Assembly (NCBI GenBank): GCA_044892525.1
Contig: CM097885.1
Span: forward strand, 5,086,001 to 5,150,000
Direction of reading: 5' to 3'
Length of the DNA: 64,000 nt
From: Schmidtea polychroa
Lineage: Eukaryota
Part shown: positions 8,635 to 30,957 of the stretch, in pieces
How positions within the stretch are numbered: the first letter of the stretch is position 1
Layout: every line of letters starts with the position of its first letter
Notes under the pieces: generated by a model
What the model saw: the letters and a program-made list of their open reading frames with translations, nothing else
Databases searched by the model: none
Told to the model about the DNA's origin: nothing
Position numbers and translations under genes: made by a program

Positions 8635-9296
8635 ATGAAAATTTTATCAGTTTTTTTTTTAATCATTGTTTACTATGTAATGTCAGCTACAGTTAATGAA
8701 AATAATTGCGAAGGTATTTGGCACTTATTTTTATTATATTTAAAAATTGTTCAGTTTGTGTTAAGTTTGTGAGACGCCTGAAAGATAGTCTAGATGGAGA
8801 TGAAAGTACAAATATCGAAAATATTGAAAATAAATTCAAAAAGATGAGCAAAACAAGTAAAGGAAAAGAATAAAGTCTGGTAAGGTATTATAACTGATTA
8901 CTATAAAATTGTAATTTATTTTTAGTGTTATTATATTGGAGGATTGGTAACATCTACTGCATATATTGTAAAACATTTGTTTCAGCCTTTGAGTTGGGTT
9001 ATGCCCGCTGAAAAAGTCTGAAAAACTAAAAGCAATGGATTCACAAATTTGTGAATTAAAATATGGTATGTTCAGTTAAGATTTTAAATATTAATTCAAC
9101 TATTTTTCAGACAAACCTATTGATCTTACTGGTATTAATCTAAACAAAGCTCGCGTTAAAGATCTCAAAACATATTAGAAAGCTGGGGTGAAGAATGTAA
9201 AGGTTGTACAGAAAAAACTGATTTTATCCGATTAATAAATGAAAAACGCCCATTTATGATCTTAAAGCAGCCAAGCAAAGAAATAAAGCCGATTTG
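8635..9296 (+). pseudogene. MANF: Captured MANF/ARMET gene copy (4 exons) inside LTR copy A
   Basis: Exons 8635-8713, 8755-8879, 8926-9065, 9111-~9296 with GT-AG introns. They encode a signal peptide, [54 protein letters not shown] and a C-terminal KADL. One stop, a Cys-to-Ser change and small frameshifts. Confidence 0.92.
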
Positions 9297-10099
9297 GAGT
9301 TTTTTCTTTTTGAGTTTTTATTCAGGATGTTGTAATTAAATAAAATATTAAAATTCTTTTTTACAATGATGTAAATAAATTTGGTAATTGAAATTAATAA
9401 ATTTAGTTTACTATTGGGTTTTGTCTTTTGATTTGATTTGACCATAATTTTGTCCATAATTTTTATAAATTATTCTATCTTTATTACTTTAAAGGGGTTG
9501 TGTAAATTATTCCACAGGGGTCTTGAGGGGAAGATTATGGTATTGGTTATTTTCTAAAATCTATATATACATACACACATCCACATATATATATACGTAT
9601 ACACATACACCCACACATATATGGATATAATTTAAATTAATAATATTGATGTCGTTTTCAGGGGGGGGGGGTGTTACTAAAAATAGATTTTAGTGATTTT
9701 CCGTAATCTTATTGGAAGATAGGGCCATTGAAACTAAATTTAGAGATAGGGGAATCCGAAAATCGATAATTTTGTTTAAAATTTTATTTTTAAGAAATAA
9801 TAATTACTTTAATAATATAATCAGTTTAGTGGGGTTACTGGGGAAAATAAAATCAATGATATCAATAAAATGTAATAGTAATACTAATGATAGTAGCAGT
9901 AATGTTAAAATAACAATAATGATAAACGGCGAATGTACCTTGATATCTTTATGAAATTACCACGGGTATATAGCTTGGGGGTCATTTAGGAATTTTAAGA
10001 GTTATCATTTTAAAATCAAATATAAGATGAATATATACATATATATACACATACACATATACACACACATATATACATATATATATAAAAGTAGTCTAT

Positions 10100-11700
10100 C
10101 TTAGTGTAAATTTAGATAAATATATAATTTGAGGGGGGTCATTTAGGAAATTTTACCACTTATATTTTTTATCATAATGTAAGTTAAATATATATTAAAA
10201 TAAGCCAATTTAGTATGTATAAGTTTGAGGGGGGGGGGGGGGGGGTCATGTGTGAACATTTACAATTTACATTTTTAAATATAATATAAGTTAAATATAT
10301 ATTAAAAATGAGTCAATTTAGTATATTTAAGTAATGGACAATGAATGTATAATTTTGAGGGGGTCAGTTATGAAAATTTCCAATTTAGAATTTTAAATAT
10401 ACTGATAGTTAAATATATATTAAAATAAGTTAATTTAGTATGCTTAGGTAATGGGTAGTGACTGTATGATTCTGAGGGGGTCATTCATAAAAATTTACAA
10501 TTTATATTTTTAAATATAATATAAATTAAATGTATATTAAGATAAGCTAATTTAGTATATTTAGGTGGTAGTTGATGACTATATGGTTTGTGGGGGTCTT
10601 TGATGAAAATTTTCCAACTATAATTTAAAAGGTAATCTAAGTTAAGCATATATATTAAATAGTCTAAATTAGTGTATCAGGTAGTGATTAATGGTTATAG
10701 GAATTAAGGGGGGTCATTTATCAAAATTTTCCAAATTTATATCGTAAAGATAATGTATTAATGTATTTAGACAATAATTAATGGTTAGGTGATCTGAGGA
10801 ATTATTAGGTTTGATAACTGCACATATATAAGTTAATTTATTGCTATATATATTGTTCTCGACTAATGTATAGTTTGAGGGGGGTACTCACGAAAAAGGT
10901 AAGTTATACTTTTATAAGTTTCAAATATACATATATAAGTTAGATTATGAATCTGGACATTTGTTTCGACCATTACGTAACTTGGGGGGGGGGGGGTATT
11001 TATAAAATATTTACAACTTTTTATAGATTATATTTTTATCGCTAACGTAGTTTATATTTTATACTTTTATGACCAAATTAAGATTATAATTTATAGTCTT
11101 TCAGCTAATATAAGTTTATAATTTATATTTTTATGAAATTAAATTTATAGTTTATGTTTTTAAAGCTAATATAATTTTATAATTTATACTTTTGAGTTTA
11201 TAATTTATATTTTATGAAGTTAAGTTAAATTTACAGTTTATATTTTAAAGCTAATATAATTTTATAATTTATATTTTTATGAAGTTAAATTTATAGTTTA
11301 TATTTTAAAGCTAATATAATTTTATAATTTATATTTTTATGAAGTTAAATTTATAGTTTATATTTTAGAGCCCATATAATTTTATAATTTATACTTTTAA
11401 GTTTATAATTTATATTTGGTGAAGTTCAATTTATAGTTTATATTTCCAAAGCTAATATAATTTTATAATTTATATTTTTATGAAGTTAAGATTATAATTT
11501 ATACTTTTATAATTAACTTAGAGTTATAATTTATAATTTTTATCGTCAATACAAATTTGTAATTTATAATTTCAAGAAATTAAATTTATAATTTATACCT
11601 TTCTAACTAATCATAATTTATATTTTGAAGAAATTAAATCTATAAGTATAATTCACATTTTTATGAAATTGAGAGGATAATTTATACTGTTATGGGTTTA
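10100..11700. repeat. Internal minisatellites of the LTR (GGGGGTCATT-anchored ~100-120 bp units, then TTTATAATTTATATTT units)
   Basis: Visible tandem units, mirrored in inverted orientation at ~14600-15300 and ~17200-17720. Confidence 0.8.
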
Positions 11701-12460
11701 CGATTTGAATTTTTATAGTTAGTTTAGAGTCTATTCAATTTAAAATCCAAGTCTTGCTGATGCGCATGTCGAACACCTTTATGAATACTATCACTACTAA
11801 ATCAATCATTTTTAAACAATCTTTACTTTACACTATTACTAGAAAATTTATTTAAGACATTTATAAATCTAGATTCGACAAACGTATAGGTAGAGTTGGT
11901 TCTTGATGATATTTAACCGTCTACATTAATTGTGAATTGTAGAGTTGTGATTAATTTAGGTCTGAGATCTACTCTGTTTATTAACCTTAGTGTATTGTAT
12001 TGTGATGATTTTGGATGTAGATTTTAACTATGTAAATTATTCATGCATTGAAAGTCGGGAAGAGTGTTTGCTTTCACGGCCCCACTGTGACCACTACGAC
12101 AAACCTTACTGTTGTGTGGAGTCGAAACATCGCTGTCGACCGATAAATAAATATATGGAGCCATAGCGGAGGGGTTTTATCGACACAACTCCATGGTAGA
12201 ACCATGAAGTGGCCGACCTCCGATGACCGAACAAAAGGAAACCAATAATATTGATAAGTGCGTGCCAGGCAGTGGCCTGCAATCATTGTGATATGTGTAC
12301 TCATCGATGATAAAGTGCATAGGTGCAGGGTTGGCTGGGATCTCGCTTCAAAATCAATGATAACCGACGATCTCACTCAAACCTACATTTCTATAGTTAA
12401 AAAGAAATAATGAAAACAAGGTTTCAATAATAATAACTTATAATTCACAATGAAATCGTT

Positions 12461-12564
12461 CTTACCTACAATCTCAGAAAAATCAAAACCAAAAATTTGG
12501 CATAAGAGTAAGCATTAGCATATTTTCCTTGCTTAAAAAGTGACGAAATGTGTTAGTTTATATA
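12461..12564 (-). promoter_or_regulatory. Putative LTR promoter (TATA, Inr-like) and first splice donor
   Basis: Minus strand TATATAAA (12564-12557), TCACTT downstream and GTAAG donor at 12465-12461. The same arrangement occurs in copy C (TATATATA 52878-52871, TCAGTC 52860-52855, GTAAG 52799-52795). Confidence 0.5.
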
Positions 12565-13499
12565 GCCTCTGTTTGACGTGTAAGTATACATGCGTGCATT
12601 GATGCAGTAAAACAAATTCGAATTATTTTAATTCTCGAACATTCGATTTTTAATTTTTATCGATTTTAATGGCGATTTTTCAGTAAGAATTTTTGTTTTT
12701 ATTTTTGAAATTTTATTTTCGAATTATTTTTTATTAAATTTGCCTCCATGATGGATTTCAGCATTTCCAGAACATTCCATGCTAAATTTAATCTATTTCT
12801 TATTTTTAAATTGTTTTTTATGATTTCTTTTCTAAAATATTTATTTTTTAAACTAAAATATTTATTTTTTATAAATTTTATTGGGTCGTTTGGCCGTCAT
12901 GATGGATTTCGCCATTTTTATGAATTGTTCTGGATTTTTATTCAAAATATCGATATAATTTTCTTTACGTAAGATTTTATGAAGATTTTCTTTAATTTTC
13001 TTTTTTAATTTTTACTAATTGCCTTTATTCGAATTTGTTTTTTGTTGTTTTATGTCTTTTGGTTATATTTGAGTAAGTTTTCATGTAATACTTCTTGCTC
13101 GTGTTTTATTTTATTTTTAATTCAGATGTTTTATTTTTGGGTATATTATCTCTCTATTATCATTGTTTACTTGGTGTTTTATATATTTTTATTTAAGTAA
13201 ACTTAATGCTGGGTATGCGTGTTGTGTACTGACACATTTCGTCCCATTCCTAACTTTGGGTCTAGAAATCAGTTCTAGCCCAACAACTTCTAATTCACTG
13301 GGTGCTGTAGGTTTTCTCTCTGTAAACGTGTTTACAGGGAGAGGTCTTTTTGAATCACAAGTCCCTTGTAATTCAAAAGGTGATTGTATATGATATCTCA
13401 ATTCTGGGTAAATTTTATCTTCTTTGACCTCCTCCAATTTATATATTTTAATTTCTATCTTTATTTACCATAAAATACCATTTCAAAGAATCAATATTT

Positions 13500-14060
13500 A
13501 AATCAAGACTTTACTGTGTGGTATCAACACTCGTATATCACTTGGTCTTGATGTGAGCACATCTTTATACAACTCGGACAATGCTTTACGAACCTCGTTA
13601 GCATCAATCTTTTTATCATAAAATATTAAATCTATATAATGTACTAGTGAACTAGCAAAATTAATATTCTTACTTTTGACTTTGTATGTTTTATGTGATT
13701 CAGTATCATGTTAATACCCATGTGACAAATCATAACTAGTCATTATAACATCATCCTTTTTAAGCTTACTATTATAATCACACTTCACGAACCACGAACC
13801 ATTTCATTGTTTGATCATCATCAGTAAATAAAAAGAAATATGGATCAATAATTTGTACAATCATAAAACAAGACCACTCTTTACTATTTGTTGTCATTGA
13901 AATTGGCTCTGTTAAATATTTATATGTATTAGGTAATGATGCATGATTCTCTTGTAATTCAGCAGCTCTTTTTCTAATGATGTGTGTAGGGTTAATATGT
14001 GTTGAGTGAGACTCTAAATTTGAAAGACTTTTATTAAATGATCTAATTATCTCATTTATT
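13500..14060 (-). pseudogene. Decayed ORF of unknown function, probably Polinton-1
   Basis: Coding-like minus-strand sequence with a few stops, directly upstream of the YPxL/PTAP gene and cut off by LTR copy B. Confidence 0.35.
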
Positions 14061-15471
14061 TGTATTATACATTGCGGGGTCGTCGGAGGTCGTACTGACT
14101 CAGTGGTATAGGCCACTGGGTTCGTCGATAAATTACCTCTGGTACGGCGGAGTTCTTAGAACTCGTTATCGTTACTATAGTATGGTAGTACATTACCGAA
14201 TCACACACATATTAGGGCTTGTCGTAGTGAGCACAGTGTGGCCACGAAAGCAAGCAACTTTCTTTAAATCGACTTTTCTCACGCATAATATACATATAAC
14301 GTACACACTAAAAATCAACACTAATACATTAACCTAGGTATGATAAACTGAGTAAAGCTCCAGACTCAAATTAATCACAATTCACAATTATTGTAGACGA
14401 TTAAATATCATCAAGAACAAACTCTACCTATAAGTTTGTCGAATCTAGATTTATAAATGTCCTAAATAAATTTTCTAGTAATAGTGTAAATTAAAGATTT
14501 TTTGAAATGATTGAATTAACAGTGATAGTATTCATAAAGGTGTTCGACATGCGTATCGGCAAGACTTGAATTTTAAATTGAATAGACTCTAAACTAACTA
14601 TGAAAAATAAAAATCGTAAACCCATAAAAGTATAAATTATAATCTCAATTATATAAAAATATGAATTATACTTATAGATTTAATTTCTTCAAAATATAAA
14701 TTATAATCCTAATTTCATAAAAATATAAATTATAATTAGTTATAAAAGCATAAATTATAAATTTAATTTTTTAAAAATATAAATTACAAATTTATAATGA
14801 CTGTAAAATTACAAATAATAACTCTAACTTAATGATAAAAGTATAAATTATAATACTAATTTCATAAAAATATAAATTATAATTAGTTATAAAAGTATAA
14901 ATTATAAATTTAATTTCCTAAAATTATAAATTACAAATTTATATTGACTATAAATTATAACTCTAAGTTGATTATAAAAGTATAAATTATAATCTCAATT
15001 TCTTAAAAATATAAATCATGAACTTATATTGATTATAGAATTATAAATTATAACTCTAAGTTAATTATAAAAGTACAAATTATAATCTTAATTTCATAAA
15101 AATATAAATTATAAACTTAAAAGTATAAATTATAAAATTATATTAGTTTAAAAAATATAAACTATAAATTTAATTTTATAAAAATATAAATTATAAACTT
15201 ATATTAGCTGTAAGAGTATAAATTATAATCTTAATTTGGTCATAAAAGTATAAAATATAAACTACGTTAGCGATAAAAAATATAATCTATAACCTCATAA
15301 TAAGTTGTAAATATTTCATAAACGACCCCCCAAGTTACGTAATCGTCGAAACAATTGTTCAGATTCATAATTTAACTTATATATGTATATTTGAAATTCA
15401 TAAAAGAATAACTTACATTTTTTCATAAGTAAACCCCTCAAACTATACATTAATCGAGAACAATGCATATA

Positions 15472-17167
15472 CCAGATAGTCTCGAAAGTAAGACCATGGT
15501 CTTACTTTCGAGTGGTCTTACTTTCGAGAAAAATAAAATTGATTTCCATTAAAAAATTATATATCCATATATATATATCCATTATATATCCAAAATTTTT
15601 ATATCCATATGACAAATACAAGACGATCATATACAGTTAAGTTTAAGCTGGATATACTTGAACGCTTGATTGTGAACAAGGGAAACATCAGTAAGACGGC
15701 ACGTGAAAACAATATAAATATATAAAACAATATGATTGGTTATACCAGAAGGATACTCTTTTGAGCGTAACCAGGAAAAATGTACTAAAGAAAGTGGGAT
15801 GTGGAAGAAAAGCCGAATTTCCAGAATTGGAAAAACTTTTGGTTGAATATGTTAAATTCGAAAGGAGGGTTTTCAAACGAGCAGTTTCCGTGTACCTTTT
15901 GAGACAAAAAGCAATGGAATATATAACTGCAAACAATTTGTCGCTTGTATTAAGTCAATGTTGGGTTCATAATTTCTTTAGAAGAAACAATCTATCCTAT
16001 CGTAAAATAACAAGCATTGGACAACAAGATAATGGAAGTCATTCCGAGATAAAGGAAATAATTACAAACCATTTAGAAAAAGTGAAAATTTGCCAAATGT
16101 ATGATGAAAGTAATATTTATAATATGGATGAAACACCCATTTATATAGATACTATGCCATCAAAGACTATAACTACCAAAGGTGAAAAAAATGTCGAAGC
16201 AAAGGGAACTGGGCACTGCAAAACACGTTTTTCAGTCGTGCTACTTATTTCAGCCAATGGAAAACTTCATAGAACTCTTGTGATTCTTAAAATATTGCGT
16301 AAAGTTCCCAAATGCTTTATTTTAAAAAATCTAATGGTAATTACATCTGAATCTGGAACGATGACAACAGAAATAATGAAAACGTGGATCCAAAATTGTT
16401 TTCCATGCGATAATATTTTTGGGCAAAACAGGAAAGCTGTAATTATTTTTGATAAGTTTAGTGCACATACAAGAAATGAAGTTACAGATCTTTTCACTCG
16501 ACTAATGTGAAAACAATTGAAATTCCGGAAAAAACAACTGCATTTTTACAGCCTCTTGATGTTGTTATTAATTTCATTTTTAAAAACGAATATAGAAAAA
16601 GATGGTCGGAATGGATGGCAAATGGGGATGCAAATTTCACTAAAATGGGATACAGGCAGAAACACTGTTGGGAAATTATATTCAAATGGGTATCTGAATC
16701 GGTTGATCAAATAAAGACCGAGAGTATACAAAAGGCATTTGTTTGTTGTGGCATTTTTGGGGTTAATCAAGACTATAACGGGGATTTGTTTAATAACAAT
16801 CTTAAACAAAAATTGATAGGTGTGGAAGCAGACGATGGTTTTGTTGTGGAAGAAGAATTATCTGAAGAGAAGGAGTATGTTGATTTTGGTGAATAAAAAT
16901 GATATCATGTTTCATTAAAAACACTGTGAATTCATATTCTATGTTTTAACTTTATTTATGTTCTGTTAAAGTGTATTTTGTTTTACAATTTTATTTTTAT
17001 GTCTTAATTTCCTCACATTTTTATTGATTTAACGAGAGCATAACAAGGGTTGGGGTATCATTCTCCACTCGAAAGTAAGACCGGTCTTACTTTCGATTTC
17101 TTTATTTCGCGTTGAAATCTATAAAAATTCGAAAGTAATACCTGGTCTTACTTTCGAGACTATCCGG
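15472..17167 (+). mobile_element. pogo-family (Tc1/mariner superfamily) DNA transposon
   Basis: TIRs CCAGATAGTCTCGAAAGTAAGACC / GGTCTTACTTTCGAGACTATCCGG, TA TSD, and repeated internal CGAAAGTAAGACC sites. Confidence 0.93.
15609..16896 (+). pseudogene. pogo transposase (BrkDBD-like, CENP-B HTH, DD35D), disrupted
   Basis: MTNTRRSYTVKFKL, FPELEKLL, WVHNFFRRNNLSYR, YNMDETP, IFDKFSAH..LQPLDV; a stop/frameshift near 15725 and a frameshift near 16505. Confidence 0.92.
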
Positions 17168-18499
17168 TAGTAATTAATTAACTTTTATATTTACAGTTAT
17201 CAAATTAAATAACTCCTCACAGCACATAACCATTAATTATTATCTAAATGCAGTAATTTAGACTATTTTACATGTATATTTAACTTACATTACCTTTACA
17301 ATAGAAATTTAGAAATTTTTTCATAAATAATCCTCTCATTTCCTATAACCATTAACCGCTACCTAAAACCATTAATTTAAACTATTTTATATATATACTT
17401 AACTTAGATTACCGGTAAATTGTAGTTGAAAATTTTCATCAAAGACCCCCCCCCGCCCCCCATAAACCATATAATCATCAACACCACCTAAATATACTAA
17501 ATTAGCTTATCTTAATATATATTTAACTTATATTATATTTAAAAAATGTAAATTGTAAATTTTTATGAATGACCCCCTCAAAATCATAGTCATTAACCAT
17601 TACCTAAGTATGCTAGATTAGCTTATCTTAATATATATTCAACTTATATTATATTTAAAAATATATTTTTGTAAATTTCCTAAATGACCCCCCTCAAATT
17701 ATATATTTATCAATAATTACACTAATATAGACTACTTAAATATGTATATATATATGTGTGTATATGTGTATATTTATCTTATATTTGATTTTAAAATGAT
17801 AACTCTTAAAATTATTACATGACCCCCAAGCTGTATACCCATGGTAATTTCATAAAGATATCAAGGTACATTCGCCGTTTATCATTATTGATATTGTTAT
17901 TATTATTAAACACCTTGGATCAAAATTTTATTTTTATTATTAATTGAAAATTTAATTTTGAAGTGGAATGAAATCTGGATAATTAAACTCAACTTTAGTT
18001 TAATCTGGATTCGTCTGAATTGAAATTAAGTAATAATTATCAGTGTTAAACGGTAAGTTAACTCAACATAAACCTGACTTATGTGTGGTATTTTAATAAA
18101 TAATTATTAACTTTCACTAGAAGGTTTCCAGGAAATGATTGCGTATGTGCCTGAATTAATGGAAATGATGTGTGTGGGAGATAAGCGGGATGAATAAATA
18201 ATGATATTGGGAAGACAATCTGGTGAAGGGATCAGGCAAAATCGGACGCAAGCCTTCTATCGGTAGTCCGTGAACCCAAAGGAGTGCCCGACAATTATAG
18301 TGTGGATAACGCGCTCACTTCTAGCGAGCACTCCCCCACTTGATACAGGACCAACGTTGATCACTCAATGGGTATCAAGCGGAGAAAAATGTTATTTGCA
18401 TTCTGGGTTACACTGGAAACAGCACGAAAGGGTAAAATGTATGCTTACCTGTAACCCACCAGAAGGAAGACAGATTTGGCAGAGATACTACCTGAAGTC

Positions 18500-18790: not shown

Positions 18791-18938
18791 TAAAGATAAA
18801 ATATAGAAACTAGTTTAACTTTAAACTGTTTATTAAACAACAATAATATAAACCTCAGGGGGATTCATGACCTTCTAGAATCAATTAAGATTAACGATAT
18901 AACATTTCATAAATCATTTCATTATAAAATTTTACAAT

Positions 18939-19455
18939 AGTAGGGTATTGTGTGGACCCGGGAACAAAGACATATGACGTCATCGATGACGTCACAAAGA
19001 CATATGACGTCATACCCCCGGGGGAGGGTTTTTTTTTAATTTTTTTTTTAAAATTTTTTTTAAAAATTCTTTTTTTAAAATTTATATTACGTTGCGGTAT
19101 TTTAAAATTTATTATATTTTAATTTTTAAATATATTACGTTGCAGTATTTTAAAAAACTTATTTTGACGGTTAAGTTGACAAAATTATTATTACACACAA
19201 TATAGTCTATCAGACAAGATATTCTGTCACATACAATGTATAAAAAATATTATTAGTGTCCACACACGCAACAAGTTAGTGTTCTCATCGATAGCTATTG
19301 ATATATTATTATTATTAATCTATATACTCCGAGTCTATCCGACAAAATATTCTGTCCCCTTATGGGTACTGCTCACAAGGGTACTGGTCACGCTCAACAA
19401 CTCGCAAGGGTACAATGATATTATTAAACAATGTAATAAAACACATATTTTCTAA

Positions 19456-19525
<70 letters not shown>
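18939..19525 (+). repeat. Left TIR of Polinton-2
   Basis: Reverse-complement match to 30440-30957, bounded internally by an (ATT)n tract. Confidence 0.93.
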
Positions 19526-19530
<5 letters not shown>

Positions 19531-19741
19531 ATTTCTATCATAAATCATGGTTAACAAAAAACATAGTCGAATATTATAAAATTAAGGTATTGTGTTAGCA
19601 CACACTCGTTATAATAATTAGCAATATAGTTTTTATGGTGTATCAAATCTAAACATTTCTTTTACATTTATAGTCTATCAACCAATCAAAATCATATGGT
19701 ATTAGTATAAATAAAACATTATATTTTAAATTATTTTAGAA

Positions 19742-20270
19742 ATGTCGCAACCAAATTTTATGGAAAATGTTTTAAACGGAATTGTCACCGCGAATATAGT
19801 CGACAGCCTCAATTTCCTGATCAATCGAACAGAACAAATCATTGAAGGTGAACATATCGATTATCAGCAGATGATGGAGACAGAATCCCTGGAAACCAAG
19901 AAGTATTACTTCAATAGAATATTTCAGTGTCTTTTCGATGAAGACATGAAATGGACAAGGATAATTGTAGGATTCACCTATATGAAGATAATCATTGCAA
20001 AAGGTCAACATGACTCAGAACATTATTATCAGTGGTCTTTAGAAGTAAGATTTCTTTTATAATTTATATTTTAATAATATTCATTTCTAGATAATCAAGT
20101 CCAAGTTTACCCCATGGATAGAAGCCAATGGCGGATGGGGTGTATTAAATAAACTGGCCTGCAATTTTAAAGAAACTGATGAAATCAAAAGAAAAATGAA
20201 AATCTATATAAAACTTACAACTGGAGTTGTTTTAATTTATATTTTCTGTAGATATATGAATAAAAATTAA
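19742..20270 (+). CDS. Bcl-2 family protein (160 aa; exons 19742-20044 and 20091-20270) carried by Polinton-2
   Basis: A 46-nt GTAAG..TAG intron restores an open frame with BH1-like LFDEDMKWTRIIVGF, BH2 WIEANGGW and a hydrophobic tail IYIKLTTGVVLIYIFC followed by RYMNKN. Confidence 0.8.
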
Positions 20271-20314
20271 TGTTATTGTTTTTAATAGTATATTTAAATG
20301 AAAATAATTCAATT

Positions 20315-20649
20315 TTAAAATTTATTAACACATTCGCAATCGTCATCTCCACATTTCATTATATTTTCAACGACATGATCAATACAATCATTCGTAATAT
20401 TATCTTTAGGTTCCTCTATAGGTTCATAGATTTCGTCATCAATTTCTTGAGTTTCTTCCTGATCGTCAAATCCTGAATCTTGACTCTCAACTACCCAGCC
20501 GATATTTTATGCATTTGTAACAGATAATATATCCTCAATTTTTACACCAGATATTTCTGCTAATTTTTCCAACAAAAAGTTGATTAATAATTCTAAATAA
20601 TAAATAATTCGGTATTTAATTAATCATGTTAACCTTTTTCTGCAGTCAT
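20315..20649 (-). pseudogene. Small acidic protein of Polinton-2 (intron 20633-20593, one internal stop)
   Basis: Spliced: MTAEKELLINFLLEKLAEISGVKIEDILSVTNA*NIGWVVESQDSGFDDQEETQEIDDEIYEPIEE..KCGDDDCECVNKF. Confidence 0.5.
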
Positions 20650-20782
20650 TTTCATCACTTTAAAACTATATTATAAGTTTGTTTATAGATTTTCTTTGTT
20701 AAATTTGCATGTCATTTGCATTAATGTTGCAATTAATAAAGAGAAAAAACAAATATGACTAATACATTTATTAAATATAACA

Positions 20783-21202
20783 TTAAAATAGTTGTGAAAG
20801 TCTAGCAGACATAATTTTCCAAATTGGAGAATATACATCATTATTATCAACTTTATATCTTTGGATTGCAATTGTTATATACCAATTTTCGTTTTCTTTG
20901 AAACCGATTTCATCAAAGGAATCATAAAATCTTGCATATCTGTTGTTGAACCATGCATGTTGATTACAAGATAGATTCGTATTCAACCGTTTGAAAACCT
21001 CATCAATAGATTTAATATCTATCATTGAAAGCGTGCCGGATAAGAATTGAAATTTAGTTGGAATTAGCTTGATCGGTGACGCCAATTTCATATTGATTTC
21101 TTCTTTTAAAAAATACATTTTATAGTTGTGGAACATTTGAACAGGTTGTACAAGTTCTGGAACAACTTTTGGCTTTTCAGTGCTTGAAATTTTCTTTGTC
21201 AT
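20783..21202 (-). CDS. Polinton-2 hypothetical protein (139 aa), possibly an OB-fold ssDNA-binding protein
   Basis: Intact ORF with upstream TATA and CCAAT; beta-rich aromatic C-terminus WYITIAIQRYKV..YSPIWKI. The fold is a guess. Confidence 0.6.
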   Translation of the reverse strand: MTKKISSTEKPKVVPELVQPVQMFHNYKMYFLKEEINMKLASPIKLIPTKFQFLSGTLSMIDIKSIDEVFKRLNTNLSCNQHAWFNNRYARFYDSFDEIGFKENENWYITIAIQRYKVDNNDVYSPIWKIMSARLSQLF

Positions 21203-21461
21203 CGTGAATTATGATTAAAATGAAATGGTACAGGGTTTTTATACCTATGACTATTGTTTATCAACCAATCAGATTGTTGTATGTCTTTGTTTAAATTGGA
21301 TGTCATTTGCATTAATGTTGCATTAATGTTTTTTATTATAAATATTGTTTTTTATTATTATTTCTAATATTACTTATATTATTACTATTTCTATTACTAT
21401 TATTATTATTTCTATTTCTATTATTTCGATTTACAAAAACAAAACAATTCAACATAAAAAT

Positions 21462-21844
21462 TTATTTTGATACAATCTGACTCGAGTGGTGATTTCTCAG
21501 AGTCTTCACCAAACACCATTCAACATATTGTTGATAACGGAAATTGCAACAGCTACATCCGAAAATGCAAGGAGCCTCTGCTTTCATTTCTTTCATCACC
21601 CTTCCTATCTTGATATCCCATAGAAAGGTGTTTATTATATCGAATATCCAGATTTGTGTTTGGTTGTATACCAAATCCGGAATGATAGCTGGATCTCTAT
21701 CTTGTAGAATTTCATTTAATTCTGGATAATAGAAGCATAATCTTTGCAGGATAATTGATTGATATTCATCTGTAAAAATTTGAAATTACCATAATTTGCA
21801 TGCTCTTTCATTGAGGTGATTGCGGAACTTTGTATGTTGTACAT
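21462..21844 (-). CDS. Polinton-2 hypothetical Cys-cluster protein (120 aa; putative 20-nt intron 21789-21770)
   Basis: ATG at 21844 joins in frame through GTAATTTCAAATTTTTACAG to ..QRLCFYYPELNE..PCIFGCSCCNFRY; TATA and CCAAT upstream. Confidence 0.5.
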
Positions 21845-21965
21845 TTTTGTTGAATAAATGACAACTAAACCGAAAACATTTTGTTATAAATAATCATCAG
21901 CCAATTAGATTTCGTCCAATCAGAATCATGCATTTCAATTGCATTGAATTTGCAATGATAAATAA

Positions 21966-22430
21966 TTAATTAAGTGATAATAAAAAATCTAAAAATTCAT
22001 TTCCTTCAATTATTGATTTAATTTCAGATATGATATTATCAACTATACATTTGTAATCAATATTTTTTATTTCAAGAATTACTATCTTACCGCTAGCGAA
22101 TATATTTACACACATAGGGTTATATTTTATATATCTCAAAGCTGGAAATAATTCTGGTTCGTAAAAGCATGGTATTAATTTAGCCAATTTATTTAAATTA
22201 CAAGAAAAACCTATATCGGAAGTTACGGTTATCGATTGTATTTCTAAATCATAAACATTATATTCACTAGCTTTGATTATTTCCTTACACCCCATAATTC
22301 TACATTTACCAGTTTTGAAATATATTATTGGATATATTTTACTTCTATTGATGAGTTGTTGTGGTTTCCCCATTGGAAATATCATTTTTGATACATCAGC
22401 CTTTGCCCTGTAATTTATATTTGAAAGCAT
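21966..22430 (-). CDS. TATA-binding protein (TBP)-like protein encoded by Polinton-2
   Basis: Two TBP-type repeats: NINYRA..IIYFKTGKCRIMGCK and EIQSITVTSDIGFSCNL..FYEPELFPALRY..PMCVNIFASGKIVI (compare TBP YEPELFPGLIY..LIFVSGKVV). Confidence 0.85.
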   Translation of the reverse strand: MLSNINYRAKADVSKMIFPMGKPQQLINRSKIYPIIYFKTGKCRIMGCKEIIKASEYNVYDLEIQSITVTSDIGFSCNLNKLAKLIPCFYEPELFPALRYIKYNPMCVNIFASGKIVILEIKNIDYKCIVDNIISEIKSIIEGNEFLDFLLSLN

Positions 22431-22534
22431 TTTAATGAAATAATTATAAAAAACTCAGTTATATATAGTTATTTTAAAAGGAGTTCATTTAAATTATCAA
22501 TATAAACAATAATTATATAGTTTAAATTTAAAAA

Positions 22535-23170
22535 ATGGAATTACGAAATGATGCAGTATACCAAATCGTTGGTCCAAGTGGTAGTGGAAAAACATTATTT
22601 GTTTGTAAATTACTAAAATCTAATTTGTTCAAAACAAAATTCAACAATATTTATTGGCATAGGGGCGCCGATGAAGAACATGGATTGACACAATCAAGTT
22701 TCTGTCAATTAAAAAACATGAAAATAGTAAAGGGTTTTGATAAAAACTGGTCAAGTCGTTTGAAGAAAGATGTCATCATTATCGATGATTTGTATCAAGA
22801 AGCCAATAAAGAAAAGGATTTTAATAATTTATTCACAAAAATCAGCAGACATGTTGGTGTAACAGTTATTTTCATAACACAAAATCTATTTCATCAAGGT
22901 GGGGCACATCGAACACGTAATTTAAATGTACAATATCTAGTTATTTTCAAGAATCCTAGAGATCCAACTGTCATTGATTTTCTTGGACGACAAGCATACC
23001 CTAATAACCGTAATTTTCTTATCAATGCATTTCAAGATGCTACGAAAGTACCTCATGGGTATATATTTCTCGATTTCACACAACAATGTCCTGATGATAT
23101 AAGGGTAAAAACAGATATTTTCAACCCAAAAGGTGCCATGGTTTATAAACAAAGTTCAAAACAAATTTGA
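22535..23170 (+). CDS. A32/FtsK-like DNA packaging ATPase
   Basis: Walker A GPSGSGKT, Walker B IIIDD, FTKISRH, IFITQNLF, VIFKNPRD, PHGYIFLD. Confidence 0.95.
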   Translation: MELRNDAVYQIVGPSGSGKTLFVCKLLKSNLFKTKFNNIYWHRGADEEHGLTQSSFCQLKNMKIVKGFDKNWSSRLKKDVIIIDDLYQEANKEKDFNNLFTKISRHVGVTVIFITQNLFHQGGAHRTRNLNVQYLVIFKNPRDPTVIDFLGRQAYPNNRNFLINAFQDATKVPHGYIFLDFTQQCPDDIRVKTDIFNPKGAMVYKQSSKQI

Positions 23171-23183
23171 AAACACATAAATC

Positions 23184-23678
23184 ATGTTTTCAAAAACAAG
23201 GATATCGAGTAAAAAACAACCAAAAGTTCCACCAACAACTAGTTATACTCCATCTAAAGAACTTATTACAGAAAATTTTCCTGCAATGAATCTTATTTCG
23301 AAAAATCCTAAACCTAAACCTAAAAGTAAAACCACTAAGAAAGTAAAAGTTGTTAAAAATCATCGGAGTTTCTCGTTTTTCAATACATTGTTAAAGGCAC
23401 CAAGTATGAAAAGAAACAGTATTTTGCAATCTTTTCCAAATTATGTTGTCGATGATTTACTCGATATTATACTTAAAGTAGTCAAAGGCAAGATTAAAAT
23501 CAGTAAATCTAAAAAGCAATTATTGAGTAAACATAGGAAACCTTTGCTATCATTAGTAAATAATAAAAATCGTCAACAAGTGAGAAAAATTATATATAAA
23601 CAACAAGGGGGATTTATCGGTGCATTGATACCTTTAACAATATCATTATTAGGTGAAATAATAGGAAGTCGATCATAA
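23184..23678 (+). CDS. Basic Polinton virion core-like protein with a C-terminal QQGGF motif
   Basis: Lys-rich 164 aa ending QQGGFIGALIPLTISLLG, resembling an adenain cleavage site followed by an amphipathic peptide. Confidence 0.7.
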   Translation: MFSKTRISSKKQPKVPPTTSYTPSKELITENFPAMNLISKNPKPKPKSKTTKKVKVVKNHRSFSFFNTLLKAPSMKRNSILQSFPNYVVDDLLDIILKVVKGKIKISKSKKQLLSKHRKPLLSLVNNKNRQQVRKIIYKQQGGFIGALIPLTISLLGEIIGSRS

Positions 23679-23681
23679 ACA

Positions 23682-23909
23682 ATGGGTGCTAATCCTTCAT
23701 TACCAGACATTAAATTTTATATTAAATCTTCTTGTTGTAATGGAGAAGATTTGGACGAACCCCGAAGACGAAGCCGGTTTCGGTGGAGTGGCAAAATTAA
23801 ACAAAAGAGTTCCGAATTCGAAAAAAGAAACCCAGAAGTGGTTATCAGACCAGCTTGCGTACAGTTTGAACAAACCAATGCAGAAACGATTCCCAACAAG
23901 AGTATATAA
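23682..23909 (+). CDS. Small overprinted ORF, putatively myristoylated and palmitoylated
   Basis: MGANPS (G2/S6 myristoylation consensus), SSCC and an Arg cluster; starts 4 nt after the upstream stop and overlaps the integrase in another frame. Confidence 0.5.
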   Translation: MGANPSLPDIKFYIKSSCCNGEDLDEPRRRSRFRWSGKIKQKSSEFEKRNPEVVIRPACVQFEQTNAETIPNKSI

Positions 23910-24140
23910 AACATATGGAATAAATGATTTATGGCAAATAGATTTGATGGAGATGATACCTTATTCGAAAATTAACAATGGGTATAAATATATTTTAACA
24001 TGTATTGATGTATTCAGTCGGTTTGCCCGAGCAATACCTGTCAAGGCAAAATCTGCAGATGAAATGTCTAAAGCTGTTAATGATTTATTTAAAGATGGAC
24101 ATCCTAATAACTTGCAAACGGATTTAGGTATTATTATTAC

Positions 24141-24210
<70 letters not shown>

Positions 24211-24711
24211 TTAGGTAAAGAATTCTACAATAGCAAATTCAAGCAAATCCTCAATAAATTGAAAATAAATCACTACTCAGTACATTCTCAATACAAAGCT
24301 GCCCATGTTGAAAGATTTAATCGAACATTGAGAGATAGATTAAAGAAATTGTTCGTGCATCAAGGTAATAAAAAATGGGTAAATGCTTTACCGAAAATAT
24401 TAACAAGTTATAATTATTCATCACATTGAGGACTGATTGGATTGAGACCGGTTGATATTACATCAAAAACATTCTATTCTAAAATATCTGTAAAAATTGC
24501 AAAACCTAAATATAAAGTCGGTGACCATGTTAGAATTAGTAAAATTAGTGCATCACCATTTATTAAAAATTTTGATACAAATTGGAGTGATGAAGTCTTT
24601 ATAATTTCAAAAATAAATACTAAACAGAATCCTGTAATGTATGTCATCAGCGATTATGATAACAATATTGTACAAGGAAAATTTTATGAGCAAGAATTAC
24701 AAGTTAAGTGA
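23740..24711 (+). pseudogene. Retroviral-like (c-)integrase of Polinton-2; intron 24128-24214; one premature TGA
   Basis: WQIDL, YILTCIDVFSRFA, LQTDLG|KEF, KAAHVERFNRTLR, YNYSSH*GLIGLRP, KYKVGDHVRIS, NWSDEVF, GKFYEQELQ. Confidence 0.93.
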
Positions 24712-25682
24712 ATTTTTATACTATTTTACCAAGCAATAGTTGCCCGCTTATTCATCCAGATAATCAAGCCATTAAATTCATGGTCAATCTCCAGAATCCG
24801 ATTTCTTTAAATGGTGACTGGGAATTTGCACTGCAAGATTTTACATTCGTGTACAATACATTCCCATTTTATAGTCAATGTAAGATTGATTTCAAAAGGA
24901 ATGCTATGAAAACATGTAGTGGTATCTTTATTATCAGTAATTATGATAAAACATATCATATTCCGAATCAAATATTAGATCCGCATTACTCTATGTTTTA
25001 CAAGGATGGATTAAATATCAGTTGTGATTTTAAACCATTTACAATAACATTCGAATATATTGAAGATGCCAAACGATTGGGTTGCAATAAGTTGAAAAAT
25101 GAAGTTATGGAAACAGAATATTTATTACGCTTTAATCTATTTGAAGCAAACAGTGTAATGAGAGAAGAAATCAAAATATCAGTGTCGTATAATAATGAAG
25201 TTTAAGAATCATTTACCTTTGCTGATGAATTATATTTTGATAAACTTGATGTGTTACTTAAATATTTAAAGTACAATTGTTCACACATATTTAAAAGTTT
25301 GGACATTGTGAAAGATTTGATGTTTACATTCAGTTTGAATGATGATATTTGCGAAGTTACATTTGATAAAAATTTGACAAATACACTTGGATTAGAGAAG
25401 CAGCAATATCGGGAAAAATCGGCTGGTATACATAAACCAAGAATACTTGAACATCATCAACAAATGTTCATATATACTAATATTATTGAGCCTATAATTG
25501 TTGGTGATTCCAGTGTTCCTCTATTGAAATCGGTGTGGATTGGAAAATATGAACATGATGAAGTTGTCAATATAAATATAGATAATCCCATGTATTTACC
25601 AATTTCAAGCTCATGTATAAACAATATAGAAATAAATATTCGTGACGATAGTGGAAAATATAAAATGATGATTGCTTGGTAG
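24708..25682 (+). pseudogene. Minor capsid (penton)-like protein; one in-frame stop, C-terminus apparently truncated
   Basis: FYTILPSNS..P.N...F...L..PI.L.GDWEFAL and MFIYTNIIEPIIVGDSSVPLLK..PMYLPI....NNIEINIRDDSG. Confidence 0.85.
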
Positions 25683-26183
25683 CAGCATTTATTATTTAAA
25701 ACAATAAAATGATAATTTAAGCCTTTTGCTGCAAATAATGTATTTAATGAAAGAATTTTCGACTATACGATAGTCCTTGTCAATCTCCTGGAATTTAGCA
25801 ATGTTCTTCCCCAAATACCTTTCAATCTTTCTTTTATTTCCATTCTCTTAATTCTCATTGGTTGTAAATATAATGAATTGTTTTACTAAAAACTTTTAAA
25901 ATTTTTACATTTAAAATTTCAAAATGACACAAACTAAAAATTTTTAAATTTTTTACAGCTTCTATAATTAGCTTCTAGAAGCCTAAATAAAAATATGTGA
26001 AAATATTTTAAATAAAGCCTCCAATAACTACTTATATATGCTATTTAAATATTTCAATAAATGTGTCAATATTGATTTTCAAACCCTATTTTTTAAAATT
26101 TTTTTTTTATATTATTCTAATTATTACTTTTTAATTTATTCTATTTTTTTAATTTCTTTATATATTGTCAGTTATTCTCAAAG

Positions 26184-28060
26184 TCAATGACAACAGATCA
26201 AATTCAAGATTTCATTGATTTTTTCTTTAGTGTTGATCTTTGGCTGTCTGTTTATGATGAGAATTGCTTCTTTGATTCTGACATTTTTCTTTTGGATGTT
26301 TCCATTAGCTATGATTTCTATTGAAATATTTTTTCTTTCTTCTGTTGGCTGACACTGCCGGAGATGTCTGCCCAACGAGGATGTTCCCCCAGGATCTAGA
26401 TGTTCTTTAAGTCTTTGGTGCAATGTCCTGAGGGTTCTTCCAATGTAGATTTCATTGCATACATTGCACGTGATGCAATTGACGATGTTTTTTCTAAAGC
26501 ACATATCTTTCGGTGTCTGGCAGTTTTTCATTGTGCAATTGTTTTCTCTATTTATGTTGCCTGCCAGAGCCCTTCTCAATGTCCAAGATTTATGTGCTAT
26601 CCGAATTGGAAGACCGGTACGTTTAAGTTCTTTCAGGATCTTGAAGTCGAGTATGTCACTGATGAATGGGATATTCAGATAGAAATATTTCTGATTCTTT
26701 TGTGTTAATTCCCTAGATCTTCTTGGGGTAGAATTCATTCTTTCAATGTCCTCACCTTGGTATCCGTTTCGGCGTAGGATTTTATTGAAATTTGATTGCT
26801 CTTTAAAGTTTTCGTTTTTCTCCGTGCATCGATTGGCTATTCTTCGTTTCTCGTTTCTTATGACATGTACTTTCTGTAAGTATGGAAGCGCTGATCTTTG
26901 GTGCATAAATATTTCTTTGCGAGCTGGTTTTCTGTAGAACCCGTATGTTGGAGTATTTTCTTCTATTTTGATTCTCAAATCCAATAAATTGAGGGATCCA
27001 TCTTCTTCCGGATATTCGATTTCGAACTTAATATCTTGATGAGCCGCATTGAATGTATGAAATATTTCCTCCGCTTCTTTTTTGTTTTTGGTCGTGATGA
27101 AGATATCATCTACATATCTTGCATAGAAACCGATGGGTTGTATGGTCCTCAGTGTCTGTCGTTCGAGGTTATCCATAAAGATGATTGCTAGCAGTCCTGA
27201 TATGCTAGAACCCATAGGCAGACCTTTAACTTGTTTATAGATATTTTGTTCAAAGGTAAAATAGGTGTTCTCGAGGATAACAGTAAGTAGTTTGGTGATA
27301 TTCTCGATATTCATTTCCTTTTTTAACAAGTTGCTTTCTCTTAATTTCTTTTCTAAACATTGAATAGCCTCTGTTGGTTCGATAGATGTGTATAGTGATA
27401 CGACATCAAGACTAAATGGGTATTGGAATTCTCTATGACAAATCAAGTTATTATTTAGTCTTGTCATGAGGCAGTCGCTGCTTTGAAGATGGTGTGGTAT
27501 CGTGTCTAATAAAGGTTTCAAGATCTTTGCAAGGAGCCAACTTGTTTTAGTTGTTGGTCCATTTTTGTTGGACACTATAGGTCTAATTTTGATACCAGGA
27601 CCCTCTTTGTGAGTTTTAATTAGGTGGTAGAAGTTAGGAAGATCAGAATTTTTTGTGACGAAGCTGTTGGTTATTCTGTTGTTGAGCCTCATTTCCAAAG
27701 CTATGGCTTTCCATACTTTGTTGATCTTCATTTCGATGGTGTTTGGTGACATGCGGCTGACTTTCTTGTATGTTTCGATGTTGCCGAGGTGTTCGTAACC
27801 AGCTTCACAGTAACGATTCTTCTCTATAATGCAAAATTCTCCCCCCTTGTCACTTGGTAAGTAGACGTACGGTTTCTTTTTAAGGGATTTTAATATTGCC
27901 TGTTCGTCTTTCGTTAGGTTTGAGAGATATGGTTTTCTTCTTTCCTTCTCAACTATCTCCATGATTTTGTGACAGACCTTTGAGAGTGTTGAATCTAATT
28001 CTGCATCAGGATTTGGTTGATAGAGTTTATCTGTGTTTATGTATACTGGGAGCTGGTTTT
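26184..28060 (-). mobile_element. Penelope-like retroelement (RT + GIY-YIG), 5'-truncated; open 592-aa ORF at 27962-26184
   Basis: SDKGG, LIKTHK..IRPIVS, FSLDVVSLYTSI, GLPMGSSIS, RYVDD, LNLLDL, FYRKP, CNVCNEIYIGRT.R.L..R..EH, KEAILI..QPKIN. Confidence 0.95.
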
Positions 28061-28065
28061 CGCTA

Positions 28066-30256
28066 TTTTCATTTTCATATGTAAATAAATTAAAATCATG
28101 TAAAATTCAATTTTGTCTAAAGGTGGAATTTATAAAAGATGATGAGTTACAATCTTTTGTAATCTCGGATTCCGCCCGAGTTTGGAGCGATACATTCATT
28201 GACGAAGGTATTGCTCGTTTAAATGAAAAAATAATTAAAATTAATGAGAAAGGTAGTAATTGGACTATCAATAAAATAGAATACATAAGCCTTTCATTGG
28301 CCTTTCAAAATATCATTCATGGAATATTAGTTGTATTCCTTTAACCAGCGAGAAATTCCTTAGTCTTTTTGCTAGGATTGACTCATTAACTGTTAAATTT
28401 ATAGACTCTTATCAATTTGTCAGCGAGTCTTTAAATAATGCTGTCAAAACTTTATCATCTTTACCCTTGACCGAATCAGAATTTCAGGGTACAATAATAT
28501 CTGCAAAGGGATTTTTCCTTATGATGCCGCAACTTCATTAGAGGTTTTACATAACACTCGTCAGTTACCTCCTATTTGGAAAGATGTGACTCCCGCTGAA
28601 TATGAGACAGCTCAGCGAATTTGGGTTGAAACTTCATGTACTTCACTTTTCGATTACATGATGGTTTATTTAAAACTTGATGTTTTCCTTTTAGCCGATT
28701 TTTTCCAGCAATTTAGAGCTAAGTCCATTGCTCATAACCGACTAGAGCCATTAAATTTCTTAGGGATTCCAGGTATGTCTTGGAATTCAGCCTTATTAAC
28801 TTTAAGCTCTCCAATTGAGCTCCTCACCGATATGGAGATGTATAACTTTTTCGAGGGCGGTATCCGTGGCGGACTAACTTTTGTAAATAAACATTATGTA
28901 AAAACAGACCCGGATACCGCTTTACTTTACATAGATATAAATAATTTATACGGTTGGGCTTTAAGTCAACCATTACCTTGCAGTGACTTTGAATGGGTTA
29001 CTGATGATAATTTATTAAATAATATAATTTTTGAATGCACAACGGTAGATTTAGATCTGCTTGATTATGGTTATACCATAGAAGTGGATTTAGAAATACC
29101 GACGTCAATTCACGACAAACTGGACGATCTTCCCGTTGCCGCTGAAAAGATGTGTGTACCAGGTTCGAAAATAGAGAAGCTGTTGCTTACACACAGCCCC
29201 AAGAGGAACTATGTTCTTCATTGAAGGCTTCTACAAATATTTATTAAATTAGGTGTTAAAATATCAAAAACACATAGAGCAATTAAATTTAAACAAGATA
29301 AAATTTTCAAAAATTATATTAACACAAATACGGCGTTACGAGCAGCGTCGACAAATAAACTCGATAAAAATTTTTATAAATTATTAAACAACAGTCTTTA
29401 CGGCAAGACTGTTGAAAATCTTAAAAAACGTATTAATTTACGTCTGTGTAATTCTTCACAGAGATTATTAACATTCTGTTCGAAACCGACTTTTCGTAAA
29501 TCCACGAAAATCGATGATGACTTGATTTCGGTTTTATTGAGGAAGGACATAGTGTGTTTGAATAGACCTAGTTACATTGGTCAAACCGTACTTGATTTAT
29601 CCAAACTTCGCATGTACCAGCTGCAGTATGAAGAGTTGCAAAAATATCGCGACGAATTCAACTGCGAAATTAATATTGTTGCTGGAGACACAGATTCCTT
29701 CTTCTTGGAAATTAAACATTGTAGTCTTGACATTCTTTTACCTGCGATGATTAGAGATCAATTATTAGATACTTCGAATTATGACTCAAATCATCCTTTA
29801 TATAGTAGGAACCTTGATTCTGTCATTGGTAAATTCAAAGACGAGAATAAAGGGTTATTATATAAAGATTGGGTGTTCTTGAGACCTAAATGTTACAGTT
29901 TGATGGGTGATGAGGAAAGTATGAAGGCTAAGGGGATAAGTATGAAAGATACTGGACTAACACATCAGTCGTATCTAGATTGCTATTTAAATGATAAAAT
30001 ATACACAGTCCCTCAGTTTAGAATAACGTCAAAAAATCACCAACTTTTTAGTATTAAAAATAATAAAAGAGCCTTGACATGTAGAGATGATAACCGAAAT
30101 TGGGTGAATAAAAATCAAAGTTTGGCATATGGCCATTATAATGGCGGTGACACCGATATATTTATAGATTCAACGAAAGCTATCTCAGCAGATGATACAG
30201 ATGATTTCCATGATCCAGCAGATGATAATTATTTTGGACATGATTATTTTCGATGA
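28066..30256 (+). pseudogene. Polinton-2 pPolB DNA polymerase, N-terminally deleted
   Basis: KGSNW, FIDSYQF, KGIFPY, YLKLDVFLLAD, GIRGG, YIDINNLYG, YKLLNNSLYGKTVEN, LDLSKLRMY, GDTDS, GKFKDE, LRPKCYS, KAKGI; one frameshift, one TGA and an internal deletion near 28320. Confidence 0.95.
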
Positions 30257-30439
30257 TGTGTTTAAATTATTTAATAAATGTATTAGTCATATTGTCTTGA
30301 ATATTTTTTTAACAGTAACTTTGTGAACAATTTTTTTTATACATTGTGTGTGTAATAATATTATGTTTAAGTTTTGTTAGTTACCTTTATGACCTTTACC
30401 CAGTGTGTTTTGTGACCTTTACCTTTGTGAGCAGTACCC

Positions 30440-30511
<72 letters not shown>

Positions 30512-30957
30512 TTAGAAAATGTGTTTTATTACATTGTTTAATAATATCATTGTACCCTTGCGAGTTGTTGAGCGTGACCAGTACCCTTGTGAGCAGTACC
30601 CATAAGGGGACAGAATATTTTGTCGGATAGACTCGGAGTATATAGATTAATAATAATAATATATCAATAGCTATCGATGAGAACACTAACTTGTTGCGTG
30701 TGTGGACACTAATAATATTTTTTATACATTGTGTGTGACAGAATATCTTGTCTGATAGACTATATTGTGTGTAATAATAATTTTATCAACTTAACCGTCA
30801 AAATAAGTTTTTTTAAAATACAGCAACGTAATATAAATTTAAAAAAAAATATTTAAAAAAAAAAACCCCTCCCCCGAGGGGTATGACATCATATGTCTTT
30901 GTGACGTCATCGATGCCGTCATATGTCTTTGTTCCCGGGTCCACACAATACCCTACT
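30440..30957 (-). repeat. Right TIR of Polinton-2
   Basis: Inverted match to the left TIR. Confidence 0.93.

Follow-up and report, generated by a model that had tools for sequence, protein, structure and literature searches.

Homologues of Bcl2 and IAP have been reported in adintoviruses (Polinton/Maverick) by Starrett et al. 2021 (PMC8502044, section 3.2), and Suppl. Fig. S2 of that report carries three Bcl2 labels. Its main text contains neither the string 'splic' nor the string 'planaria', and no planarian or spliced Polinton Bcl-2 gene was found in the literature searched, with most subscription journals and Repbase lying outside that search. Here we describe such a gene in a 64,000-nt stretch of Schmidtea polychroa DNA (contig CM097885.1, positions 5,086,001 to 5,150,000; hereafter the window). 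Like the adintoviruses described in PMC8502044, the locus presents a Bcl-2 accessory gene on an animal Polinton with protein-primed DNA polymerase B (pPolB), rve integrase and packaging ATPase. Unlike those described there, the planarian gene is predicted to be spliced, is present in more than 1,200 copies and is traceable to one host gene. The type of cargo is known; this locus adds predicted splicing, a very large copy number, a donor gene that can be named and an exchange of introns.

Planarian mobile DNA has yielded a related case, since Burro LTR retroelements carry a BCL2-like motif (PMC6431247). As described in that paper, the Bcl-2-like domain of Burro lies inside the giant gag-env-pol polyprotein of a retroelement. 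Our genome scan returned dozens of weak Bcl-2 matches inside ORFs of 1,000-3,000 codons, and these are probably the Burro polyproteins of that description. A further comparison is given by the viral mimics E1B-19K, DPV022, A179L, BHRF1 and KsBcl-2, whose short Bcl-2 fold, reduced loop and tail anchor are shared by the planarian product as predicted here. These mimics (of adenovirus, deerpox, ASFV, EBV and KSHV) and the Polinton all belong to dsDNA virus-like genomes. The planarian gene differs from them in that it has no shown sequence kinship with them, appears to be an independent capture from a flatworm gene, resides in an integrated germline element and has only a putative activity. Its position near the left end of the element resembles that of E1B, an early gene, in adenovirus.

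The results confirmed that the two-exon Bcl-2-like gene at window positions 19742-20270 (forward strand) is real. Exon 1 (19742-20044, +; 303 nt, 101 codons) encodes helix 1 to about half of helix 6 and contains the BH1-like KWTR. It is followed by an AT-rich, phase-0 GT-AG intron of 46 nt (20045-20090, +), whose borders read GAA/GTAAGA ... TTTCTAG/ATA with the donor at 20044/20045. Exon 2 (20091-20270, +; 180 nt, 59 codons plus the stop TAA) carries the BH2 motif PWIEANGGW and, towards the C-terminus, a hydrophobic tail that is followed by basic or polar residues. The predicted spliced product comprises 160 codons, from the ATG at 19742 to the TAA at 20270. An earlier sequence-only reading had proposed a 46-nt GT-AG intron and a 160-aa protein with KWTR, WIEANGGW and a tail anchor; its coordinates hold, and KWTR, WIEANGGW and a hydrophobic C-terminus were found in the predicted product. 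It had also held that the ORF list misses the gene, which is correct for exon 2, whereas exon 1 is listed as a 106-aa read-through ORF.

Promoter-like boxes lie upstream at 19682-19711 (+). CCAAT occupies 19682-19686, as had been read before, and TATAAA occupies 19706-19711, so that it starts at 19706 and not at 19707. Both boxes are present 5' of the gene in all four subfamilies described below, while the spacer diverges. They were kept in 50 of the 51 loci with a locatable exon 1 (58 loci examined, the copies not being independent), and when 90-nt stretches were taken at random from the window, 0.4% showed the CCAAT/TATAAA pattern.

The Polinton carrying the gene spans 18939-30957 (12,019 bp), has the ends AGTAG and is flanked on both sides by the target site duplication TACAAT. 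Long terminal inverted repeats (TIRs) starting with AG, about 520-590 nt each, together with a 6-bp duplication identify it as a Polinton. The left TIR starts with AGTAG at 18939, directly after TACAAT at 18933-18938, and ends at approximately 19527; the right TIR (30440-30957) is followed by TACAAT again. The Bcl-2-like gene had been called the first gene inside the TIR. Counting inward from the left repeat it does come first, but it lies outside the repeat itself: a position within the terminal repeat is rejected for this copy, in which the ATG stands about 215 nt beyond the end of the left repeat. No Bcl-2 gene adjoins the right repeat in the right arm of this copy. Three perfect TGACGTCA palindromes of CRE/ATF type were seen at 18975-19012, all in the outermost 75 nt of the left TIR, and only one TGACGTCA palindrome is still perfect in the right TIR. 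ATF sites also occur in adenovirus terminal repeats.

As to the other genes of the element, a TBP-like gene (21966-22454, -; Pfam TBP, E 1.4e-13) stands head-to-head with an A32-like packaging ATPase (22535-23170, +; Pfam Pox_A32, E 2.3e-7). These are followed by an rve integrase (23740-24711, +), which is interrupted by a triplet-repeat expansion and a stop in this copy, and by a probable minor capsid gene (24708-25682, +), which we take to be the penton gene from an N-terminal motif, and which has no Pfam match, is split by a stop and is cut off at about 25664. The pPolB gene (28024-30256, +) is in pieces, with DNA_pol_B_2 matches at E 4.5e-10 and 5.2e-8. pPolB, integrase and packaging ATPase all scored above the Pfam cut-off. 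An adenovirus-like cysteine protease found no match among the window ORFs scanned with Pfam.

These results show that the window copy is defective, with integrase, probable penton and PolB broken and the capsid block missing. The gene block after the penton is missing here at about 25664 and is present in sibling copies, where an ORF of more than 380 codons follows the penton in both of the two loci fetched. One of these ORFs resembles major-capsid-protein clusters (score 0.97, with recognition below the tool's threshold), and PF21738 occurs on 14-16% of the members of the capsid-like clusters that it matched. It had no Pfam or PDB sequence match; it is probably a double-jelly-roll capsid gene. 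A Penelope-like retroelement ORF with RT and GIY-YIG (26184-28106, -), an insertion foreign to the Polinton, forms an open frame of 640 codons and sits at the place where the capsid block of the sibling copies is missing.

We then consider whether the product belongs to the Bcl-2 family, which is shown by the following matches. Exon 1 alone matched Pfam Bcl-2 (PF00452) at E 8e-4 with 20.4 bits, the cut-off being 31.4. Copies of subfamilies B and C, read across their in-frame introns, scored 33.4-34.5 bits and passed this cut-off, while an intronless relative (P0010) scored 32.7 bits and exon 1 of the host source gene 46.0. Among the weak PDB matches, six of seven for exon 1 were A1 or Bak, and five of six for exon 2 were BH2 regions of Bcl-xL/Bcl-2 (E 0.8-1.9). 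Because exon 1 matched the Pfam family and exon 2 the BH2 regions, the Bcl-2 likeness is not due to chance. The BH2 signature W-x(3,4)-GGW is present, PW and NGGW are invariant in the four subfamilies, and exon 2 aligned with the host BH2 at a pairwise E of 6e-9. The BH1 signature NWGR is absent and is represented by KWTR or QWTR in subfamilies A-D, in which W and R are kept and G is lost; the host source gene, although it passes the Pfam cut-off, reads RWSR there. Helix 2 has no canonical BH3, the columns of L-x-x-(L/I)GDE reading LNFLINRTE. The loop between helices 1 and 2 is almost gone, the host protein having about 15 more residues there. The best 15-residue mean hydropathy of the tail was 1.6-1.9 in subfamilies A-D, 1.6 in the host gene and 1.8 in a Bcl-xL-like protein.

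Structure prediction gave a compatible picture. The model of exon 1 built with a 34-row alignment reached a pLDDT of 84.7, had one continuous helix at residues 6-36 and showed helices bundled about the hydrophobic helix 5 at their centre, as in Bcl-2 proteins. In the Foldseek search of the PDB, all rows listed for this model were of the Bcl-2 family and several of the top rows were Bak, with a best E of 0.09 that is not significant. In VIA, the top 18 rows were Bcl-2-family chains, led by deerpox DPV022 and ASFV A179L; DPV022 was best (rmsd 4.0, 97 residues aligned), though its Z of 9.5 falls in the range where the tool advises caution with helical bundles. In the viral structure library no row reached significance, and the highest-ranked one was an iridovirus BCL2-like protein (E 0.32). 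A four-row model from element sequences only had a pLDDT of 60.5, generic helical matches and no Bcl-2 fold. Since the 34-row alignment was filled with Bcl-2 proteins, the fold result is partly circular and indicates compatibility, not independent proof. Judging from the model, it is conceivable that the protein, lacking its loop, acts as a dimer in which helix 1 is swapped; a helix-1 swap is found in poxvirus F1L/DPV022.

The exchange of the BH1 glycine for threonine (KWTR) had been noted earlier as a change that may alter or abolish binding, and in a check of other copies WTR was found in 30 of 30. The glycine is absent throughout the group, with WTR in copies of subfamilies A-D, WSK in the intronless lineage and WSR, WSR and WSQ in the host gene and its orthologues. 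Decay of the window copy as the cause of the exchange is ruled out by the WTR in 30/30 and the WSR of the host. Because the host source gene and its orthologues also have no BH1 glycine, its loss is an inherited trait of a planarian subfamily. According to PMC9027176, the glycine of BH1 is important when canonical members bind their partners, and the BH1 arginine pairs with BH3 ligands. This arginine is kept in subfamilies A-D.

The intron was compared across copies. A GT-AG phase-0 intron stands at the same codon in 29 of the 31 loci tested, which represent four subfamilies, and the remaining two loci did not match the search motifs. Its length is 46 nt in subfamily A, 48-51 nt in B, 45 nt in C and 44 nt in D (lengths seen: 44, 45, 46, 48 and 51), while exon 2 stays at 59 codons in 28 of the 29 intron-bearing loci. 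Introns of frame-keeping length end in an in-frame TAG, and lengths of 44 and 46 break the frame, so that the exons can be joined only by splicing. When P0012, a host mRNA-type protein, was used as the reference for the junction, exon-1 residue 101 aligned to its residue 126 and exon-2 residue 1 to its residue 127. Near the junction there is only one donor-like site, and two weaker in-frame acceptors follow the acceptor of the intron at distances of 9 and 15 nt. From these features we infer that intron 20045-20090 is removed by splicing. Protein databases held no full-length spliced product: a near-length search with exon 1 returned three exon-1-type entries among four candidates, and alignment of exon 2 with longer proteins succeeded for none of 155 candidates, which is weak evidence. 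One database entry, P0003, is 98% identical to exon 1, has a different four-residue end and is found in none of the loci compared; it may represent an alternative splice or a variant copy.

Selection on the two exons was estimated with one copy per subfamily. dN/dS was 0.07-0.20 for exon 1 (five pairs, the sixth being saturated) and 0.09-0.51 for exon 2 (six pairs), which showed that both exons are under purifying selection across subfamilies. Within subfamily A, distinct coding variants comprised 18 non-synonymous and 10 synonymous changes, and such near-neutral variation is expected of many copies that drift after insertion. The earlier idea of a spliced Bcl-2-family cargo of a Polinton gains support from these comparisons, in which exon 2 is conserved in other copies; sibling copies of the family have a packaging ATPase as well as the probable double-jelly-roll capsid gene.

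To describe the extent of the family, the 781-Mb genome was searched with several probes. A 30-mer of exon 2 gave 1,247 genomic matches with at most three mismatches, and the reversed control gave 0. The DNA search with the gene returned 1,846 candidates, and the 40 that were scored were all at least 98% identical at full length. Protein searches with exon 1 of the window type and of a second type, 63% identical to it, returned 2,411 and 2,389 candidates, respectively, and the 150 scored in each search were all at least 96% identical. Four subfamilies were distinguished, A (window), B (L046), C (L049) and D (L061), with exon-1 amino acid identities of 65-82%. Both exons were open and bounded by GT-AG ends in 28 of the 30 best-scoring copies, a proportion that is biased upward since these are the best-scoring ones; of the two exceptions, one had an altered donor and one an exon-2 frameshift. 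In 25 of 30 subfamily-A loci, BH1 is preceded by the element terminus at a distance of about 0.95-1.3 kb. More than 1,000 hidden copies of this kind can distort counts of planarian Bcl-2 genes and interfere with probes or RNAi directed at them.

Some copies are arranged unusually. Inverted pairs of copies were seen, separated by 8-16 kb and with matching inner genes on either side, among them L063/L064, L073/L074 and L049/L050, which are 8-11 kb apart and have near-identical left-arm genes; the sequence suggests that they are palindromic rearranged elements. At four loci (L011-L014) the 3' ends of PolB and of the Bcl-2-like gene face each other, which places the latter at the right end of the element, and three of these (L012-L014) have a common flank and look like one local duplication. 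Taken together, the inverted pairs and the four PolB-facing loci indicate that rearranged elements can carry the gene at either end.

The cellular origin of the gene was traced through the host Bcl-2 genes. The Pfam scan of the genome for Bcl-2 yielded 909 candidates; 150 of these were scored, with at least 136 matches, and 30 loci were fetched. The single-copy host gene consists of L042 and a last exon, L081, about 3 kb further on; L042/L081 had one match at 100%, the next being at 47%. It is the orthologue of S. mediterranea C9WPR4 ('Bcl2-like protein'), to which its exons are 87% and 93% identical. The element protein shares with this host protein (C9WPR4/ACW83059.1) a BH1 without glycine (WSR in the host), the lack of a canonical BH3 and a colinear BH2 and tail, with identities of 20% for exon 1 and 25% for exon 2. 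The two genes differ in that the host gene is single-copy with an intron of about 3 kb after GGW, while the element gene has a short intron in helix 6.

An intronless relative of the element gene, P0010, was also found, with 43 matches at E 1e-20 or better and 12 full-length ones at 93% identity or more. It adjoins homologues of the window TBP-like gene, of ORF 20783-21208 and of the packaging ATPase, and the TBP-like homologue beside this lineage is 50% identical. Because these neighbours are Polinton genes, the intronless gene belongs to another Polinton lineage.

In a tree of exon 1, five Polinton lineages, L042/L081 and an orthologue of it formed a group at 95/88, a tree whose bootstrap had not settled. 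The same grouping appeared at 94/94 in a second exon-1 tree, which leaves out ten mostly long-branched rows, including L039, L041 and L052, and has two unnamed proteins inside the group. In both trees the element genes stand on a long branch from the host gene. One Burro-like frame (L052, our own assignment) fell outside the element-gene group, on a long branch. In each of the trees, two unnamed database proteins, P0015 and P0017, fell close to the cluster of host and Polinton genes. Origin from L031, a canonical NWGR paralogue, was rejected (p-AU 0.009), and neither a single capture nor two captures were rejected (p-AU 0.51 and 0.43). These results showed that the closest cellular relative of the element gene is L042/L081. 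Two further proteins, P0022 (a repeat protein) and P0023, gave scores with the exons when a small set was searched, but inspection showed that they are not relatives. Seven near-identical canonical NWGR Bcl-2 copies (L031-L037) lie on one contig (G000:C4, about 89.95-90.83 Mb), and they have no donor after GGW.

The introns bear on how the gene was acquired. Of 8 distinct host-type loci, 5 have a strong donor after GGW, the source gene among them, and not one of the five Polinton lineages has it. Conversely, no interruption was found at the intron position of subfamilies A-D in the host-type loci examined or in the intronless lineage. The absence of the host GGW intron together with the presence of a different intron points to RNA-mediated capture and later intron gain. 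The simplest reading of these sequences would be capture of a processed transcript, followed by intron gain in the ancestor of subfamilies A-D. An ancestral element would have acquired one host Bcl-2 gene as a processed copy of its mRNA; one lineage would have stayed intronless, and the other would have lost the helix 1-2 loop, gained a short helix-6 intron and then split into at least four subfamilies. Alternatively, the source was possibly a lost host paralogue that already had the helix-6 intron. Under processed-transcript capture, the presence of the donor, an intronless sister and four spliced subfamilies in one genome allows capture, loop loss and intron gain to be ordered.

With respect to function, we think it moderately likely, from the sequence features above, that the element protein is an early, host-transcribed, tail-anchored pro-survival factor that delays the death of the replicating cell. 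Host RNA polymerase II would transcribe the gene early from the left-end CCAAT/TATA promoter. The intron would be removed, and the 160-aa protein would be tail-anchored in the outer mitochondrial or ER membrane, where it might bind planarian Bak/Bax-type or BH3-only proteins through a groove keeping the BH1 arginine. Death of the cell would then be delayed while the element replicates and integrates. Localisation, partners and anti-apoptotic effect of the product are what we infer in this account. A kept BH1 arginine and an absent BH3 motif fit a pro-survival protein better than a killer protein. Knock-down of planarian bcl2-1, which may differ from the source gene, leads to cell death and lysis, as given in PMC6970515 citing Pellettieri 2010. 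Purifying selection on an apoptosis-family gene lends indirect support to a lytic or stress-inducing, virus-like phase of these elements, and the Burro motif, taken with it, suggests repeated selection on planarian mobile elements to dampen cell death.

A different role is conceivable, though rather unlikely in our estimate: the spliced, selected Bcl-2-fold protein might be a decoy that blocks autophagy or innate signalling, or binds only the partner of its own host paralogue. Modulation of autophagy by viral Bcl-2 proteins is described in PMC11209288. Some poxvirus and herpesvirus Bcl-2-fold proteins act as such decoys, and the non-canonical BH1, the absent BH3 motif, the long branch from the host gene and structural neighbours including M11 with Beclin 1 and vaccinia A49 would agree with it. 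However, BH2, the BH1 arginine and the putative tail anchor are all kept in the element protein. Poxvirus Bcl-2-fold signalling inhibitors usually lose features of this kind.

It is very unlikely that the protein acts against host survival, either as an antagonist of host pro-survival Bcl-2 or as a late death promoter releasing particles. EBV BALF1, reported in PMC11209288 both as pro-survival and as an antagonist, gives a precedent for such ambiguity, and several of the leading Foldseek rows are Bak. Yet the protein has no BH3 motif, the host-type left-end promoter suggests early expression, and a lethal product would be difficult to reconcile with more than 1,200 integrated copies, many of which have their promoter boxes intact. 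Most improbable is a functionless passenger, a captured host fragment whose intron is a decayed, unspliced insertion: the near-neutral variants within the subfamily and the defective window copy would suit it, but both exons have dN/dS values far under 1, the intron keeps its GT-AG ends although its length varies, the alignment to the host protein is exactly colinear at the junction and the promoter boxes persist, all of which argues against it.

The pro-survival reading could be extended into a joint one, which we regard as improbable as a whole, in which the more than 1,200 promoter-bearing copies would form a transcribed, spliced pro-survival pool, the product would be a helix-1-swapped dimer, and the intron gain would be a dated event. 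If it were true, the pool would keep planarian stem or germ cells alive during replication bursts, and host cell death and tissue turnover would be measurably shifted. It would also put a date on the acquisition of a spliceosomal intron by an RNA-captured gene in a virus-like element. In planarians, a model group in which cell death has a central part in regeneration and genes can be silenced by RNAi, the one-line report of Polinton Bcl2 homologues becomes a testable case.

Several other features were observed in the window. To the left of the Polinton, nested long inverted repeats at 8051-18393 surround a DDE transposase remnant (15914-16510) and form a large palindromic element. Three adjacent ORFs of 418, 143 and 160 aa without a clear Pfam match lie at 3142-5411 (+). 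On the other side of the Polinton, an ORF with a TRAF/MATH domain (Pfam E 1.2e-17) lies at 41623-42120 (-), and a hAT-type transposase in pieces, with zinc finger, DUF4371 and dimerisation domain, occupies 58015-59901 (+).
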